DNA of 64,000 nucleotides from Escherichia phage 132: sequence record MZ417521. One strand, given 5' to 3'. The stretch's first letter is position 1, and each line of letters opens with the position of its first letter. Below the pieces are notes generated by a model. That model was not told where the DNA came from. It saw only the letters and a program-made list of their open reading frames with translations, and ran no database searches. The position numbers were made by a program, and so were the translations under genes. Shown here in pieces: positions 34,513-43,442 of this stretch.

Positions 34513-35691
34513 TTAAAAATATTTTTTAAAACTCATCATAACTTTATCATCAACATCATTATCAATCTGTGCTACAAGGTAAGATGACAGTTCTACTTCT
34601 TGTGGCGCGGATTGAACATTATCAGAATTAAGGTATTCACGAATCCAAGGATATGGATGTTTAACCGGAGCATCGATAATTGGGCATGGAAGACCACACT
34701 GTTTCATACGAGATACAGTTAAGTAATCAATAAAGCTCCACATGCTATTTGTATTTAATCCAGGAACATCACCATCTTTAAATAAATGAACTGCCCAGTC
34801 TTTTTCTTGGCGGTTAACTTCCATGAAAATATCAACTGCTTCTTGTTCACACTCTTGAGCAATTTTAACCCATTCATCACCGTCAGTGCCAAGTTGAAGT
34901 TGACGAATAATATATTGAGTGCCTTTAAGATGAAGTTGTTCATCACGCGCAATGAACTTCATAATCTTGGCATTACCTTCCATGATTTCCATGTTCTTAT
35001 GGAAGTTAAAGGTACATGCGAAAGATACATAAAAACGAATAGCTTCCAATGCATTGATTACATGGAGGCAAAGATAAAGAGATTTCATTAGTGCTCGTTT
35101 AGCTTCGGCTTCTTGTTTAATAGCTCGATTTAAACGAAAATCAGCATCAGGAGATTCTTTAGCTAGTTCTACAAATTCTTTAGCATTTTCCCATTCACGG
35201 GTCTTCTTAAGAACATCATCGTAATAGCGGCCAATGGACTCAGCGCGTTTCATAATATCTTCATCTAATACAATCTCATCAAATACCTTTGATGGGTCAG
35301 TATAAAGATTTCGCATGATATGAGTATATGAACGGCTGTGAATAGTTTCACTAAAAGTCCATGTAGCAACCCATGTATCAAGGCTTGGGTCTGAAATTAA
35401 CGACATAAGTACAGCAGACGGTGCACGACCCTGAATGCTATCCAAAAGTGATTGATACTTCAGGTTATTAGTAAAAATATCTTGCTGATACTGAGGAAGC
35501 TTGTTAAATTGTGCAGCATCCATCATTAAGTTTACTTCTTCAGGACGCCAGAAAAATGACAACTGCTTTTCGGTTAAATCTTCAAAAACTTTATGACGTT
35601 GAATATCATAACGCGCAATACCAAGACCTGATCCGAAGAACATAGGTTCTTTTAAAACATCAACTGGATTTGTATTAAAAACTGTGCTCAT
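34513..35691 (-). CDS. nrdB: Ribonucleotide reductase small subunit, uninterrupted (no intron)
   Basis: 392 aa continuous ORF; T4 nrdB carries a group I intron. Confidence 0.95.
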   Translation of the reverse strand: MSTVFNTNPVDVLKEPMFFGSGLGIARYDIQRHKVFEDLTEKQLSFFWRPEEVNLMMDAAQFNKLPQYQQDIFTNNLKYQSLLDSIQGRAPSAVLMSLISDPSLDTWVATWTFSETIHSRSYTHIMRNLYTDPSKVFDEIVLDEDIMKRAESIGRYYDDVLKKTREWENAKEFVELAKESPDADFRLNRAIKQEAEAKRALMKSLYLCLHVINALEAIRFYVSFACTFNFHKNMEIMEGNAKIMKFIARDEQLHLKGTQYIIRQLQLGTDGDEWVKIAQECEQEAVDIFMEVNRQEKDWAVHLFKDGDVPGLNTNSMWSFIDYLTVSRMKQCGLPCPIIDAPVKHPYPWIREYLNSDNVQSAPQEVELSSYLVAQIDNDVDDKVMMSFKKYF

Positions 35692-35742: not shown

Positions 35743-38007
35743 TCATAATTTACAGGATGAACAATCTTCAGCTTTTGGAGTTTCTATTTCATAATCATCA
35801 GTACCAGAACCGTCGCGGGTATTATGATAATAGAAATTTTTTCCGCCAAAATACCAAAAGTACAAAAGGTCATCAATCATTACAGACATTGGAACCTTTC
35901 CTTTTGGAAAAATCTGCGGGTCATAATATGTATTCGCTGAAGCTGATTGACATACCCATTTCAGCATAATAGCTACCTGCGTAAGATAAGGTTTATTACC
36001 TTTCTTAGCTAATTTCCATGTATAATCATAGAGGTCTATGTTATGTTCAATATTGGGCACGACTTGATTAAAGGAACCCTCTTTTGATTCTTTAACCGAG
36101 ACTGGTCCACGTGGAGGCTCGATACCGTTTGTACTGTTAGAAACTTGGGAAGATGACTCACATGGCATAAGTGCTGATAATGTGCTATTACGGATGCCAA
36201 AGAGCTTAAGGTCTTCCCGCAGCGACGACCAGTCACAAACGTATTTTGGAGCTGCGATTTGGTCAATCTTTTTATTGTACCAGTCGATAGGTAATTCGCC
36301 TCGAGACCAACGAGTGTCTGAATAATATTCGCAAGGTCCTTTTTCTTTGGCGAGCTTAATGGATGCTTTAATGAGTCCATACTGCAATCTCTCAAATAGT
36401 TCATGTGTTAAATCGTTAGCATCTTCATAAGAAGCAAAGTTACTTGCCAGCCAAGCTGCATAGTTGGTAACACCTACGCCAAGATTACGACGCTTTTTAG
36501 CTTTTTCTGCTTCAGGAACTGGATATCCTTGGTAATCCAAAAGATTATCAAGAGCGCGAACTTGAACTTCTGCTAATTCATTAATTTTATCTTGGTCTTG
36601 CCAATCGAAGTTATCCAACACAAATGCAGATAACGTACACAATCCAATTTCAGCATCAGGACTATTTACATCATTTGTTGGAATAGCAATTTCACAACAC
36701 AAGTTACTCTGGCGAATAGGTGCCTTTTCACGAATAAACGGAGTATAGTTATTCGTATTATCAATGAACTGCACATAAATCCTTGCTGTTCCTGAGCGTT
36801 CAGTCATGAGCAATTCAAATAGTTCACGGGCTTTAATACGCTTTTTACGAATATTAGGGTCTTTTTCTGCGGCTTCATATAATTCACGGAAACGGTCTTG
36901 GTCTTTAAAATAAGAATAATAAAGCTCGCCACCCATTTCGTGTGGACTGAACAAAGTAATGTAGTCGTTCTTTCCGAATCGTTCCATCATTAGGTCATTC
37001 AGCTGGACACCATAATCCATATGGCGGATACGGTTTTCTTCTACGCCTTTGTTATTTTTCAAAACGAGAAGATTTTCAACTTCCAAATGCCAAATAGGAT
37101 AATAAGCAGTAGCAGCGCCGCCACGAATTCCGCCCTGTGAACATGATTTAACAGCAGTCTGAAAATGTTTCCAAAAAGGAATAACACCAGTATGACGCAC
37201 TTCACCTGTGCCAATCTTAGAACCTTCGGCACGAATCATACCAACGTTAATACCAATTCCAGCGCGTTTGGAGATATATTCAACAATTGAAGCGGAAGCC
37301 TTATTGATAGACTTCAGCGAATCACCTGCCTCAATAACAACGCATGAACTAAACTGTCGAGTCGGAGTACGACAGCCAGCCATAATAGGAGTTGGTAATG
37401 AAATCTGTCGAGTAGATACTGCTTCATAAAAACGAATAACATGTTTTAATCTATTAACAGGTTCATCTTGATGCAATGCCATTCCAATAGTCATAAATGC
37501 AAACTGTGGAGTTTCATAAATTTGACCAGTGGTTTTATCTTTAACGAGATATTTTTCTTTTAATTGCATCGCCCCGGAATAAGTAAATTCCATATCCCGC
37601 TCGTGCTTAATTTTTGATTCTAAAAATGTAATTTCTTCTGCAGAATATTTTGACAACAATTCAGGGTCATATTTACCTTCATTTACACAGTAAGAAATAT
37701 GGTCAATAAATGAACGTGGTTCATACTGACCGTAAACATGCTTACGAAGAGCAAACATTAAACAGCGTGCAGCTACATATTGATAATCAGGCTCTTCAAC
37801 TGAAATAGAATTCGCAGCAGCCTTAATTACAATGGTTTGAATGTCATCAGTGGTCATTCCATCACGGAGATATGATTTAATATTTTCATATAATTCATAA
37901 GGATCTACAGATGTTCCTTCAGCTGCCCAAGATAAAACTTTAATAATTTTTTGCGGGTCAAAGCTTTGAGAAACACCACTACTTTTGATAACATTAATTA
38001 ATTGCAT
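35743..38007 (-). CDS. nrdA: Ribonucleotide reductase large subunit
   Basis: 754 aa; N-terminal ATP-cone, C-terminal CxxC. Confidence 0.96.
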   Translation of the reverse strand: MQLINVIKSSGVSQSFDPQKIIKVLSWAAEGTSVDPYELYENIKSYLRDGMTTDDIQTIVIKAAANSISVEEPDYQYVAARCLMFALRKHVYGQYEPRSFIDHISYCVNEGKYDPELLSKYSAEEITFLESKIKHERDMEFTYSGAMQLKEKYLVKDKTTGQIYETPQFAFMTIGMALHQDEPVNRLKHVIRFYEAVSTRQISLPTPIMAGCRTPTRQFSSCVVIEAGDSLKSINKASASIVEYISKRAGIGINVGMIRAEGSKIGTGEVRHTGVIPFWKHFQTAVKSCSQGGIRGGAATAYYPIWHLEVENLLVLKNNKGVEENRIRHMDYGVQLNDLMMERFGKNDYITLFSPHEMGGELYYSYFKDQDRFRELYEAAEKDPNIRKKRIKARELFELLMTERSGTARIYVQFIDNTNNYTPFIREKAPIRQSNLCCEIAIPTNDVNSPDAEIGLCTLSAFVLDNFDWQDQDKINELAEVQVRALDNLLDYQGYPVPEAEKAKKRRNLGVGVTNYAAWLASNFASYEDANDLTHELFERLQYGLIKASIKLAKEKGPCEYYSDTRWSRGELPIDWYNKKIDQIAAPKYVCDWSSLREDLKLFGIRNSTLSALMPCESSSQVSNSTNGIEPPRGPVSVKESKEGSFNQVVPNIEHNIDLYDYTWKLAKKGNKPYLTQVAIMLKWVCQSASANTYYDPQIFPKGKVPMSVMIDDLLYFWYFGGKNFYYHNTRDGSGTDDYEIETPKAEDCSSCKL

Positions 38008-38324: not shown

Positions 38325-38553
38325 ATTGTTTTTCCGTTAAAACAGTAATATCATAGTAACAATCTGAAGAAGTTTTAACTGTAGAAATTTTATTATCAAA
38401 ATACTCACGAGTCATTTTATGAGTATAATATTTTTTGCCATAAATGATAATAGGCTGATTTGGTCCTGGAACTTCTAACTCACTTGGGTTAGGAAGTGTA
38501 AAAAGAACTACACCAGAAGTATCTTTAAATCGTAAAATCATATATCCTCGCAA
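38278..38553 (-). CDS. Hypothetical protein, at the T4 nrdA.2 position
   Basis: 91-aa ORF overlapping the previous ORF by 47 nt. Confidence 0.55.
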
Positions 38554-38564
38554 TTAATAATTAA

Positions 38565-39425
38565 TTACACCGCCATTTTTCCTTTAATAGGAGGGTGTGA
38601 TTCGTAACCTTTAAGAACGAAATCTTTAGGCCTGAGTTTAAGAACATATTTTAATTGTTCTTTAGTAGAAAGATGACGGAATTTATAAGGCAATCCGCCT
38701 ATTACCAGTTCACAAAGCTCTTTAGGTTCACGACGTAAAATTTCTTTACATTGTTCAACGTGATTCATATAGATATGAGTATTACCGCCAGAAAATATCA
38801 AATCTCCAGGAATAAGATTACACATCTTAGCTACAATATGAACTAACGCAGCATATGATGCAATATTAAATGGAAGACCGAGGAAAACATCTACTGATCG
38901 TTGATACCACTGTAAATCCAAATAGCCATTACGCACATTAAACTGATAGAACATGTGACAAGGCGGTAATGCCATTTGCTTGAGTTCAGCTGGATTCCAT
39001 GCTGAAACAACTTGACGTCTATCATTTGGCAGTTTTTTAATACGATCAATAACTTCTACAATTTGGTCTACACCGCCAAAATCACGCCATTGTTTTCCAT
39101 AAATTGGACCAAGTTCACCGCTATGGTATCCTAAATCTTTTGCTTGATTTTCGTAATTTTCATCCCAGACTGTTTTGCCTTGAATTAATGAATCATGCTG
39201 AATTAATCGTAAATCATTTACGTTAGTACTTCCTGACAAAAACCATATTAGCTCAGCAATACAAGCTTTCCAGGCGAGCTTCTTAGTCGTTACTGCAGGA
39301 AAACCTTTAGTTAAATCCCAGCGTAATTTAGTACCGAACAAAGCAATTGTTCCTGTGCCTGTTCGGTCATCGGTTTCATAGCCATTTTCAAAAATGTCTT
39401 TAATTAAATCTTGGTATTGTTTCAT
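38565..39425 (-). CDS. td: Thymidylate synthase, uninterrupted (no intron)
   Basis: 286 aa continuous ORF; active-site region around LPPCHMFYQF. Confidence 0.96.
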   Translation of the reverse strand: MKQYQDLIKDIFENGYETDDRTGTGTIALFGTKLRWDLTKGFPAVTTKKLAWKACIAELIWFLSGSTNVNDLRLIQHDSLIQGKTVWDENYENQAKDLGYHSGELGPIYGKQWRDFGGVDQIVEVIDRIKKLPNDRRQVVSAWNPAELKQMALPPCHMFYQFNVRNGYLDLQWYQRSVDVFLGLPFNIASYAALVHIVAKMCNLIPGDLIFSGGNTHIYMNHVEQCKEILRREPKELCELVIGGLPYKFRHLSTKEQLKYVLKLRPKDFVLKGYESHPPIKGKMAV

Positions 39426-39470
39426 TTAGTACCTTATATAAATTATAATACATTTTATGAAGCTAAATAA

Positions 39471-39833
39471 TCAATACGGTTTAGCATCAAATTTTCTTTC
39501 AATTTCAGGCGTGAAATACAATTCTTTACCGCGTTTGGAAAAGCGACCAATAATATGATAATTATTCTCATCAAACGTAATATTGCCAATATCCATAGCT
39601 TTCAACCAAATATCGATATTTCTATCCAGTTTTATATCAAAATTCCAATACGGAGAACTATTACCGAAAATACTGCAAGCGGATTCAGTGCAATAACTGC
39701 TGCTATAAATCTTGTCTTTGGGAACTACTAATTGATAGACGCCTTTGATAAACTGAGGACCCTGCCATTTTGGTTGTTTCGCGTCTTTTTCTAATAGAAT
39801 AGGATAATAATTAAAGTTCATATTTTCCGCCAC
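39471..39833 (-). CDS. Hypothetical protein inserted between frd and td
   Basis: 120-aa ORF with no recognisable motif, tightly packed between frd stop and td start. Confidence 0.7.
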   Translation of the reverse strand: MAENMNFNYYPILLEKDAKQPKWQGPQFIKGVYQLVVPKDKIYSSSYCTESACSIFGNSSPYWNFDIKLDRNIDIWLKAMDIGNITFDENNYHIIGRFSKRGKELYFTPEIERKFDAKPY

Positions 39834-39841
39834 GCGTTATT

Positions 39842-40671
<830 letters not shown>

Positions 40672-40934: not shown

Positions 40935-40975
40935 TTAGTTGATAGGGTAATAGTATCACACTACTACCCTACTGT
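40935..40975 (-). promoter_or_regulatory. T4-type early promoter
   Basis: Minus strand GTTTAC, spacer, TATTAC, then conserved cctatcaact start region. Confidence 0.55.
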
Positions 40976-40978
40976 AAA

Positions 40979-41664: not shown

Positions 41665-41712
41665 TTGCCGATAGTTGTATAGTACCATGGAATGACAAGA
41701 ATGTAAACTGTT
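41665..41712 (-). promoter_or_regulatory. T4-type early promoter with A/T-rich UP element
   Basis: Minus strand aaaattttttcacaaaac-GTTTAC, 17-nt spacer, TATACA; near-identical cassette at 58315-58362. Confidence 0.6.
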
Positions 41713-41739: not shown

Positions 41740-41758
41740 GGGGACCTCTAGGGTCCCC
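41740..41758 (-). terminator. Hairpin GGGGACC-TCTA-GGGTCCCC downstream of gene 32
   Basis: 8-bp GC stem, T-run on the minus strand. Confidence 0.6.
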
Positions 41759-41780: not shown

Positions 41781-42689
41781 TTAAAGGTCATTCAAAAGGT
41801 CATCCAGGTCCGTGTCATCAGCACCAGATGAACTGCCAGAGCTTGAGCTCATAAAATCATCTTCAGTTTTTGTTTTGAAGTCATCAACATTGAATGCATC
41901 CAAATCATCAGCAACTTTATCAGCTTTCTTAGCGGCAGTTGCTGCGGCACCGCCCATAGCAGCAGTTCCCATAACTTGACTGAACTTAGTGCTCAGTTCT
42001 TCAAACGATTTGAATTTATCTTTAGAAGTCATTTCAGAAAGGTCAACCATTTGTTCGAACAGTTCTTTCTGGAAAGATTCATCATCAATGTTTGGAATCG
42101 CAGATTGATTCAGGAATTTAGATTCGTCGTAGTTACTAAAACCAGAAACTTGTTTAACTTTCAGTACAAAGTTAGCACCTTCCCACGGACAAGTTACATC
42201 AACCGGAGTTTCACCCATTTCAACATCAACTGCAATCATTGCATTGATTTTATCCCAGATTTTCTTACCGAAACGGTATTTAAATACTTTACCTTCATTT
42301 TCTGGAGCAGCTGGGTCTTTTACTACAAGAATGTTAGCCCAGTAAGAAGTTTTACGTTTAACAAGACCGTACTCTTTATTGTCAGTGTTATACAAATCAT
42401 TTTTACTGATGTACTGACATACTGGACAAGAATCGTAATCACCGTGGGTAGATGAACAGTTTTCAATATACCATTTACCATTTTTCTTGAAACCGTGATT
42501 TACAAGAATTGCGAATGGTGCTTGTTCATCATTTTTAGACGGAAGAAAACGAATTACTGCTTGACCGTTACCCGCATTGTCGAGTTTCAGTTTCCACTCG
42601 CCTTTATCTTCAGAAGAAAAACCACCTTTATTTCCAGCCAGTTTAGCCATTTGTGCAGCGAGTTCAGCAGTAGATTTACGTTTAAACAT
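41781..42689 (-). CDS. 32: Single-stranded DNA-binding protein gp32
   Basis: 302 aa; zinc site around [10 protein letters not shown]; acidic C-terminal tail [12 protein letters not shown]. Confidence 0.96.
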
Positions 42690-42755
42690 TTTTATTTCCT
42701 TTTTAATTTAATTAACAGTTGGTGCTATGACGATGTATGACCTCATAGCTGGTCA
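42690..42755 (-). promoter_or_regulatory. Gene 32 translational operator: A/U-rich leader plus 5' pseudoknot
   Basis: Minus strand UGACCAGCUAUGAGGUCAUACAUCGUCAUAGC (stems UGACC/GGUCA and GCUAUGA/UCAUAGC) followed by A/U-rich tract up to the ATG. Confidence 0.75.
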
Positions 42756-42772
42756 GTGAGATAATTATAATC

Positions 42773-42780
42773 TATTTATA
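42773..42780 (-). promoter_or_regulatory. Late promoter TATAAATA (minus strand) upstream of gene 32
   Basis: Complement of plus-strand tatttata. Confidence 0.55.
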
Positions 42781-42788
42781 ATAAGCAA

Positions 42789-43442
42789 TTAATACTTGCA
42801 GGATTTCACAGTTTCAATGAAAACACTTTTGGCTTTCTGTGAATCAATATTTAAAATTTTTCTATAAGCTTTTAACTTTATAGAATAATTATTCCAGATT
42901 AAATTATCAGTCTGTTCATCATGTTTATCAATTATATTTAAAAACGAATCAAGCAAGATAAACGTCTCAAACGAAATTATATTCGATTGAAGTAGTTTAA
43001 AAATATAACTTGATTGAACTTTTGGATTATATTCAAAGATTTCTTTAAAAGCAGAAACTTCAACTTTTTTACTAAAATAGTAAATATTGCGAATATCTTC
43101 TTCAAACTTAAATTTAATTTGCTTTAAGCGTCCGATATATTCACGATAAAACACAAGTGCATCAGCGTCAGAGATGTCACCAATCCAAGCATCCTGGTTA
43201 GCAACAAGATTGCTTATAAAGATTAAAGCAAGTTCCTTTAATTTATATTTTTCTGATAACTTCTGGAAAAAATACTTATCCCTTCGCTTTTGATAAGCGG
43301 CATCAGACACCCGCATGCACCAATTATACTTAATTACATCATACTTTCCATTCATATGTTGTTTTATCATTAAGTATAATTTATAAACTGATTTACCATC
43401 AATATATCTTTCACCACCAGCAGGCATGCGGAGTTTAATCAT
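42789..43442 (-). CDS. 59: Helicase loader gp59
   Basis: 217 aa, same as T4 gp59. Confidence 0.92.
   Translation of the reverse strand: MIKLRMPAGGERYIDGKSVYKLYLMIKQHMNGKYDVIKYNWCMRVSDAAYQKRRDKYFFQKLSEKYKLKELALIFISNLVANQDAWIGDISDADALVFYREYIGRLKQIKFKFEEDIRNIYYFSKKVEVSAFKEIFEYNPKVQSSYIFKLLQSNIISFETFILLDSFLNIIDKHDEQTDNLIWNNYSIKLKAYRKILNIDSQKAKSVFIETVKSCKY

Follow-up and report, generated by a model that had tools for sequence, protein, structure and literature searches.

The small gene td.1 between frd and td is an apparently old and conserved resident of T-even phage genomes that T4 has probably lost by a precise deletion

The window analyzed here, a 64,000-nt stretch of DNA from Escherichia phage 132 (sequence record MZ417521), is a segment of a Tequatrovirus, that is, of a T-even phage. 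Its minus strand carries, in this order, genes 32, frd.3, frd.2, frd.1, an 81-aa ORF, frd, td.1, td, nrdA.2, nrdA.1, nrdA, and nrdB; the coordinates of td.1 and of the features around it are collected in Table 1. A preliminary description, made from the letters alone, had noted a minus-strand ORF between frd and td, 8 nt after the frd stop codon and 45 nt before the td start codon. The ORF listing agrees with this placement, and both distances are correct. Equally, the remark that T4 has no such ORF and that its frd stop overlaps the td start is borne out by the T4 genome (NC_000866), in which frd and td share 4 nt (ATGA) with no gene between them.

The homing endonucleases of T4 had been described as missing from this phage, and I-TevI, mobE, I-TevIII, and segG are indeed absent from this part of the window. 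Specifically, td contains neither its intron nor I-TevI (38565..39425 examined), the gap between nrdA and nrdB is 51 nt long without mobE or any other endonuclease (34513..35691 and 35743..38007 examined), nrdB is an uninterrupted ORF of 392 aa lacking both intron and I-TevIII, and no segG lies between genes 59 and 32 (41781..43442). Phages SP1 and KMB39 are 100% identical to the window at the td.1 locus, yet SP1 possesses an endonuclease between nrdA and nrdB; KMB39 carries the td intron and segG despite this identity. A search of the window for a second member of the td.1 family found none, making td.1 a single-copy gene, and an Rfam search of both strands of 38400..40600 returned chance-level matches only.

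Table 1. Features at and near td.1 in the window, followed by related genes in other loci that were retrieved (L numbers)
Feature	Position	Strand	Remarks
td.1 coding sequence	39471..39821	-	116 aa plus TGA stop (39473..39471); start ATG at 39821 (almost certain)
Four-codon stretch from GTG start	39822..39833	-	probably untranslated
GTG-start ORF containing td.1	39471..39833	-	120 aa; ORF listing
Weak Shine-Dalgarno-like GGCGGA	39831..39826	-	upstream of ATG 39821, inside the four-codon stretch
frd (dihydrofolate reductase)	39842..40426	-	194 aa; upstream neighbor, same transcription unit as td.1
td (thymidylate synthase)	38565..39425	-	286 aa, uninterrupted, without intron; downstream neighbor of td.1
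td.1-td spacer	39426..39470	-	45 nt
Shine-Dalgarno AAGG of td	39435..39432	-	in the td.1-td spacer
Sigma-70-like pair TTGATT and TATTAT	39474..39469 and 39450..39445	-	consensus match only
Perfect TATAAT	39447..39442	-	overlaps TATTAT; consensus match only
MotA-box-like TTTAGCTTCA	39467..39458	-	consensus match only
Direct repeat copy 1, TAAATGAAA	39840..39848	-	spans frd stop codon; 39837..39848 when extended
Direct repeat copy 2, TAAATGAAA	39420..39428	-	spans td start codon
TAAATGAAA sites in the window, examples	8494, 9945, 16204, 23044, 39420, 39840		
Strong predicted terminator	41758..41740		after gene 32
Early-type promoter matches	41707..41679 and 40978..40950		downstream of the gene 32 terminator
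Tandem paralogue of td.1	L004:2317-2676, L006:2309-2659, L007:2314-2685, L009:2290-2643, L010:2309-2656, L011:2314-2685, L014:4332-4673		retrieved loci
68-aa gene	L012:2578-2784 (Paracelsus), L004:2673-2879, L009:2648-2854, L014:4670-4879		retrieved loci

The ORF in question had initially been taken to encode 120 aa. While the open frame exists, its start and length need revision: translation of td.1 almost certainly begins not at the GTG but at the ATG four codons downstream, yielding a predicted protein of 116 aa (MNFNYYP...). The coding sequence annotated in GenBank records with 100% identity at the locus is 351 nt long, which corresponds to the ATG start, and the td.1 orthologues share the N-terminus MNFNYYP. 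In phage NHEP29, no upstream extension is even possible because the td.1 ATG overlaps the frd stop codon.

The gene is td.1, a genuine protein-coding gene of T-even phages that has been annotated before and that belongs to the protein family PHROG 1928. The T2H record AY262132.2 names it td.1 (protein ABI48932.1), it is called RB32ORF229c in RB14/RB32, and ∼360 Tequatrovirus records, including T2, T6, RB3, RB14, RB27, and hundreds of field isolates, label it "hypothetical protein." By tblastn, homologues are found in 579 phage records, 362 of which have at least 90% amino acid identity. The product of the window's gene is 97.4% identical over 116/116 residues to that of T2H td.1 and to those of T2, RB14, and RB3, while phages SP1, KMB39, and FL33 are 99.8 to 100% identical at the locus (SP1 and KMB39 100% at the DNA level). 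Its location likewise fits the orthologue group: it shares a strand with frd and td and lies after the stop of the former and before the start of the latter. The PHROG 1928 profile matches with an E value of 1.3e-33, residues 8 to 116 aligning to profile positions 2 to 125 of 126, and distant relatives of both types described below (A-type, JD18; B-type, R3_1) fall in the same PHROG. Thus, td.1 is not new, given the existing annotation, and we found no published study of it; a literature search on td.1, RB32ORF229c, phrog_1928, the frd-td junction, and accessory or anti-defense genes of Tequatrovirus returned nothing relevant.

A few records give the gene more specific names. Three Bas phages (AdolfPortmann, FriedrichZschokke, and AlbertHofmann; MZ501046.1 bas44_0069, MZ501067.1, and MZ501047.1) call it a "putative homing endonuclease," and SF2-1 and pSe_SNUABM_01 (PQ571308.1 and NC_054937.1) a "putative glucose-1-phosphate adenylyltransferase." Neither label found domain or structural support in our searches.

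No catalytic, membrane, or DNA-binding motif had been recognized in the preliminary description, which agrees with zero matches in Pfam, NCBIfam, and PADLOC. In detail, Pfam held no match for the protein or for 52 of its relatives, NCBIfam held none for the td.1 product, and PADLOC returned 0 families at E ≤ 10, the last result being uninformative on counter-defense since this collection holds defense, not anti-defense, proteins. Neither a copy of the ORF in T4 nor a confident match to a characterized family, either of which would have changed the initial picture, was found. Pairwise hhalign comparisons with FRD2/frd.2, DUF5417/frd.1, DUF7247, the ORF just upstream of frd, the 68-aa gene described below, nrdA.1/DUF4326, and nrdA.2 gave probabilities all below 1%. 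A search for related loci with a four-sequence alignment retrieved only four near-identical IMG/VR loci, and an exhaustive HMMER scan of 1.84 billion representatives yielded 23 proteins, 21 of them 95 to 130 aa long. The two long matches (P0021 and P0025) are repetitive, show no family resemblance, and were treated as spurious. All family members whose genomic context we examined reside in T4-like phages or contigs.

Outside Tequatrovirus, at least six genera have homologues of td.1 with 27 to 47% identity directly after frd, the stop and start codons overlapping in most cases: Kanagawavirus (Entb_45), Jiaodavirus (JD18), Gelderlandvirus (S16 and a Proteus phage), Kagamiyamavirus (EcS1), Winklervirus (Gravdalen), and Marfavirus (R3_1). 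Two metagenomic T4-like contigs contain homologues of 62 to 65% identity in the same slot. Most of the non-Tequatrovirus genera have, next to the td.1 homologue, a second gene of 113 to 123 aa, which is a true paralogue of td.1 (A-type versus B-type hhalign probability, 99.6%; E = 1e-23) distinguished by an insertion of ∼20 residues, the "APTIxxYKRNP" segment after a conserved QKxW. A 68-aa gene (MSNKLKV..., PHROG 9550, no Pfam match) sometimes follows the paralogue; in Kanagawavirus, Marfavirus, and a metagenomic contig, it comes last in a row of three small genes that separate frd from td. In phage Paracelsus (Bas36, MZ501096.1), the same 68-aa gene, unannotated, fills the frd-td gap and has an ATGA overlap with the frd stop. 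The fullest arrangement is therefore frd-A-B-C-td, of which T2, T6, and the window have A only, the Paracelsus group has C only, and T4 has none. In Entb_45, frd is annotated as two pseudogene fragments (L004:1502-2016), and the td.1 homologue, paralogue, 68-aa gene, and td are all intact.

This distribution shows td.1 to be, as far as gene order and homology can tell, long established immediately after frd across the Tevenvirinae, and its presence to be the majority state in Tequatrovirus and most probably the ancestral one. The early notion of an extra ORF inserted at the junction is not supported: ∼360 Tequatrovirus records have the gene, six other genera carry homologues in that slot, and it is the T4 state that appears derived.

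Comparison of the frd-td junction itself points the same way. T2, T6, RB3, RB14, and RB27 all have td.1, and T4 lacks it. Two copies of the 9-mer TAAATGAAA, 11/12 identical once extended, flank the segment, and removing from the window the 420 bp between them leaves exactly the T4 (and RB69) junction, TATAAATGAAACAATACC. Phage REP1 carries td.1 even though the 75 nt flanking the site on either side match T4 without a difference. The T4-type single-piece junction was seen in 5/60 evenly spread rows out of 379 matching records, from which we estimate that the empty junction is rare in Tequatrovirus, occurring in roughly 30 records that are largely T4 isolates and close relatives. We consider the T4 frd/td arrangement to be derived, judging by these alignments, through a 420-bp loss between the 9-bp direct repeats. 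Precise removal of the DNA between two TAAATGAA(A) repeats at the gene junctions would yield the empty allele and, with it, the well-known ATGA overlap of frd and td in T4.

The repeat is less peculiar than it may look. Composed of a stop codon (TAA or TGA), ATG, and a Lys codon, TAAATGAAA has 11 copies in the window versus 3.9 expected, and we regard it as what its composition and frequency indicate, a generic stop/ATG/AAA gene-junction motif and not an insertion scar. Recurring gene-junction motifs of this kind could provide microhomology for precise whole-gene deletions in T-even genomes.

Presence of td.1 is also polymorphic beyond Tequatrovirus. RB69, a Mosigvirus, has an empty junction like that of T4, as do 127 Mosigvirus-type records. 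By contrast, NHEP29, NHEP36, and SF are Mosigvirus by their flanking genes, yet carry td.1. In NHEP29 (PQ511150.1; L016:117-1745), Frd and Td are both 97% identical to those of RB69, and the td.1 of the three phages shares 96% nucleotide identity with the allele of the Tequatrovirus Shf125875 group. We read this as an apparent recent gain between genera by homologous recombination, and the comparison shows that filled and empty alleles have, by all appearances, been exchanged between phages in this manner. The polarity is not one-way: "insertion" is a fair term for a few Mosigvirus phages but not for the lineage of the window. Thymidylate synthesis does not require td.1, as is clear from T4, the ∼127 Mosigvirus records, and the Paracelsus group, all of which thrive in its absence.

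Where the gene is present, it is tightly constrained. Pairwise Nei-Gojobori comparison of six Tequatrovirus/Mosigvirus alleles gave dN/dS values of 0.00 to 0.05, with 6 to 34 synonymous versus 0 to 11 nonsynonymous differences. Relative to T2, the dS of td.1 is 0.18, inside the range of the neighboring genes (0.08 to 0.38), and omega is lower for td.1 (0.04) than for td (0.066) and frd (0.19). When the window is compared with the Mosigvirus NHEP29, identity amounts to 92% for Td.1, 91% for Td, and 58% for Frd, and the invariant residues of Td.1 are kept across homologues down to ∼20% identity. These values indicate that Td.1 is under strong purifying selection and conserved about as much as thymidylate synthase. 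Together with the fixed synteny, this is not as expected of a recently acquired cargo gene.

The neighboring Frd of the window stands out on its own account, being only 87% identical to T2/T4 Frd (dN 0.073, omega 0.19), whereas the adjoining td.1 and td are 97 to 98% identical to those of T2. This points either to a mosaic boundary or to a phage dihydrofolate reductase whose evolution is relaxed or diversifying.

As to expression, no terminator is predicted before td, and early-like promoters follow gene 32, from which we infer that td.1 is cotranscribed with frd and td before replication starts. The spacer between td.1 and td contains, in addition to the Shine-Dalgarno sequence of td, several promoter-like elements (Table 1), which might constitute a candidate internal promoter of td with no possible counterpart in T4. 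As only 15 nt of spacer are left in REP1 and NHEP29, the elements lack conservation, and we give them little weight. A MotA-type middle promoter was considered but not adopted. The distance from the box to the −10 element is 10 nt, which is less than the roughly 12 to 13 nt of T4 middle promoters, and the spacer that would hold it is missing in REP1 and NHEP29.

An AlphaFold2 model built from a 52-sequence family alignment reached a pLDDT of 91.4 and a pTM of 0.84. It places strands at residues 6 to 12, 27 to 34, 63 to 65, 81 to 83, 87 to 97, and 100 to 105 and a helix at 69 to 77, and lists the strand at 81 to 83 among further short strands at 38 to 39 and 50 to 51. The model shows Td.1 as a predicted soluble, mildly basic, single-domain small β-barrel of 116 aa, in a family that is hydrophilic with a median pI of 8.6. 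By the order of its secondary-structure elements (β1-β2-β3-helix-β4-β5), the modeled fold is OB-like.

Alignment of the family reveals five invariant columns (W19, G27, G92, K96, and G98); the set of invariant or nearly invariant residues comprises L9, Q16, W19, G27, Y29, G92, R93, F94, K96, G98, and F103. Conserved residues map to the β1-β2 loop, the start of β2, and the β4-β5 hairpin, the elements that line the ligand-binding cleft in OB folds. Foldseek against the PDB found nothing below an E value of 0.36, its weak matches being mostly OB folds; significant superposition on solved OB folds was not found. Against BFVD, only uncharacterized proteins were returned, the named ones all from phages, and a sequence profile search of the PDB gave a best E value of 1.3. 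The profile and structure searches that had been proposed at the outset thus deliver a confident barrel without a significant solved relative.

Our best explanation as a whole, combining the identity of td.1, an ancestral slot with a deletion in T4, an OB-like fold, and an accessory role, is one to which we give somewhat less than an even chance. Regarding function in particular, we tentatively propose, with confidence lower again, that Td.1 serves the prereplicative nucleotide-precursor/replication module as a small, dispensable, OB-like accessory factor that binds a ligand. A prereplicative transcript shared with Frd and Td would be its source. Its binding face would be formed by the invariant β1-β2 loop (Q16, K18, and W19), the start of β2 (G27 and Y29), and the β4-β5 hairpin (G92-R93-F94-x-K96-x-G98), and its partner could be either single-stranded nucleic acid or a protein. 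The synteny with frd and td may perhaps reflect just a stable slot in a tightly packed operon.

It seems unlikely, though it deserves serious consideration, that Td.1 is instead an early counter-defense or host-takeover protein that neutralizes a host immune or housekeeping factor and that is kept where such hosts are met and lost elsewhere. Such a role would fit a small protein without enzymatic motif encoded in an early operon, whose gene is present or absent within a genus (it is missing from T4, the Paracelsus group, and most Mosigvirus records), has been transferred between genera, has expanded into a tandem paralogue, and belongs to a family confined to T4-like phages in the exhaustive search of 1.84 billion representatives. 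It sits poorly with the very strong purifying selection, with a cross-genus conservation equal to that of thymidylate synthase, and with a fixed position beside frd in at least eight genera; moreover, neither a match to a known family nor a published link was found, the PADLOC null being uninformative here as it concerns defense proteins only.

A bolder proposal, which we think distinctly improbable, is that Td.1 founds an unrecognized, T4-like-only family of small β-barrels serving as a conserved noncatalytic partner of the thymidylate-synthesis/dNTP-synthetase machinery. Such a partner might, as an adaptor, anchor Td or Frd to the replication complex, or it might regulate the frd-td message by binding RNA. 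It would have gone unnoticed for decades as the model phages T4 and RB69 both carry the deletion allele.

That td.1 is a selfish or mobile insertion, whether a free-standing homing endonuclease gene, what remains of one, or a cassette that resembles a transposon and has a 9-bp target-site duplication, we judge to be very improbable indeed. Intergenic slots of the T-even nrd/td region are classic sites of seg and mob genes, 9-bp direct repeats do flank the segment, three Bas records carry the homing endonuclease label, and NHEP29 apparently gained the gene. Against this, GIY-YIG, HNH, LAGLIDADG, and other nuclease domains are absent at E ≤ 10 (Pfam and NCBIfam), known homing endonucleases that include a DNA-binding domain are larger than 116 aa, and TAAATGAAA is a generic junction motif (11 copies versus 3.9 expected); in addition, the slot is conserved across genera and dN/dS is ∼0.03. 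As to transposon hallmarks, there is no recombinase, and the best inverted pair spanning most of the 420-bp segment (39398-39406/39808-39816) measures 9 nt and has its arms within td and td.1 instead of at the segment's ends.

That td.1 is a chance open frame or a decaying pseudogene without a product is hardly credible, as the weak Shine-Dalgarno-like sequence speaking for it is set against 6 to 34 synonymous versus 0 to 11 nonsynonymous differences between alleles, a sole length difference that is in-frame and lies in the lowest-confidence part of the model, invariant residues that persist to ∼20% identity, and a confident fold prediction. We consider the homing endonuclease, the mobile cassette, and the chance ORF to be effectively excluded.

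As it stands, td.1 is a correctly observed but previously annotated hypothetical gene. What its history illustrates is reference bias, in that the textbook stop-start overlap of frd and td in T4 would be a derived deletion and not the T-even norm. The gene is as conserved as thymidylate synthase, yet its absence from T4 and from RB69 explains why it is not known to have been studied. Since nature provides the filled and the empty allele in locally almost identical surroundings (REP1 versus T4), what the gene contributes is open to direct testing. If Td.1 proved to be part of the dNTP synthetase or replication machinery, or a counter-defense factor with a new fold, it would be a modest but real addition to T-even biology.

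Among known systems, the closest is td.1 of T2H, which is the same gene in the same position and orientation. The window's allele encodes 116 aa with SSSYC, whereas the common T2/T6 allele encodes 115 aa with SSCF; this in-frame change is the sole length variation between the alleles compared and lies in the lowest-confidence part of the model (residues 41 to 50; mean pLDDT, 70). PHROG 1928 is the same family as td.1, but the family carries no annotation and membership is therefore uninformative on function. The free-standing homing endonuclease genes of the seg and mob type resemble td.1 in being intergenic in the 32-frd-td-nrd region, in their presence/absence polymorphism, and in their spread by recombination. 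Unlike these genes, td.1 lacks a nuclease domain, is one third to one half their size, keeps its position across genera, and is under strong purifying selection. Finally, OB-fold domains such as those of RPA/SSB, Teb1, S1, and HIN are, like the Td.1 model, ∼100 aa long with the element order β1-β2-β3-helix-β4-β5, and they share with Td.1 conserved aromatic and basic residues in the β1-β2 loop and the β4-β5 hairpin.
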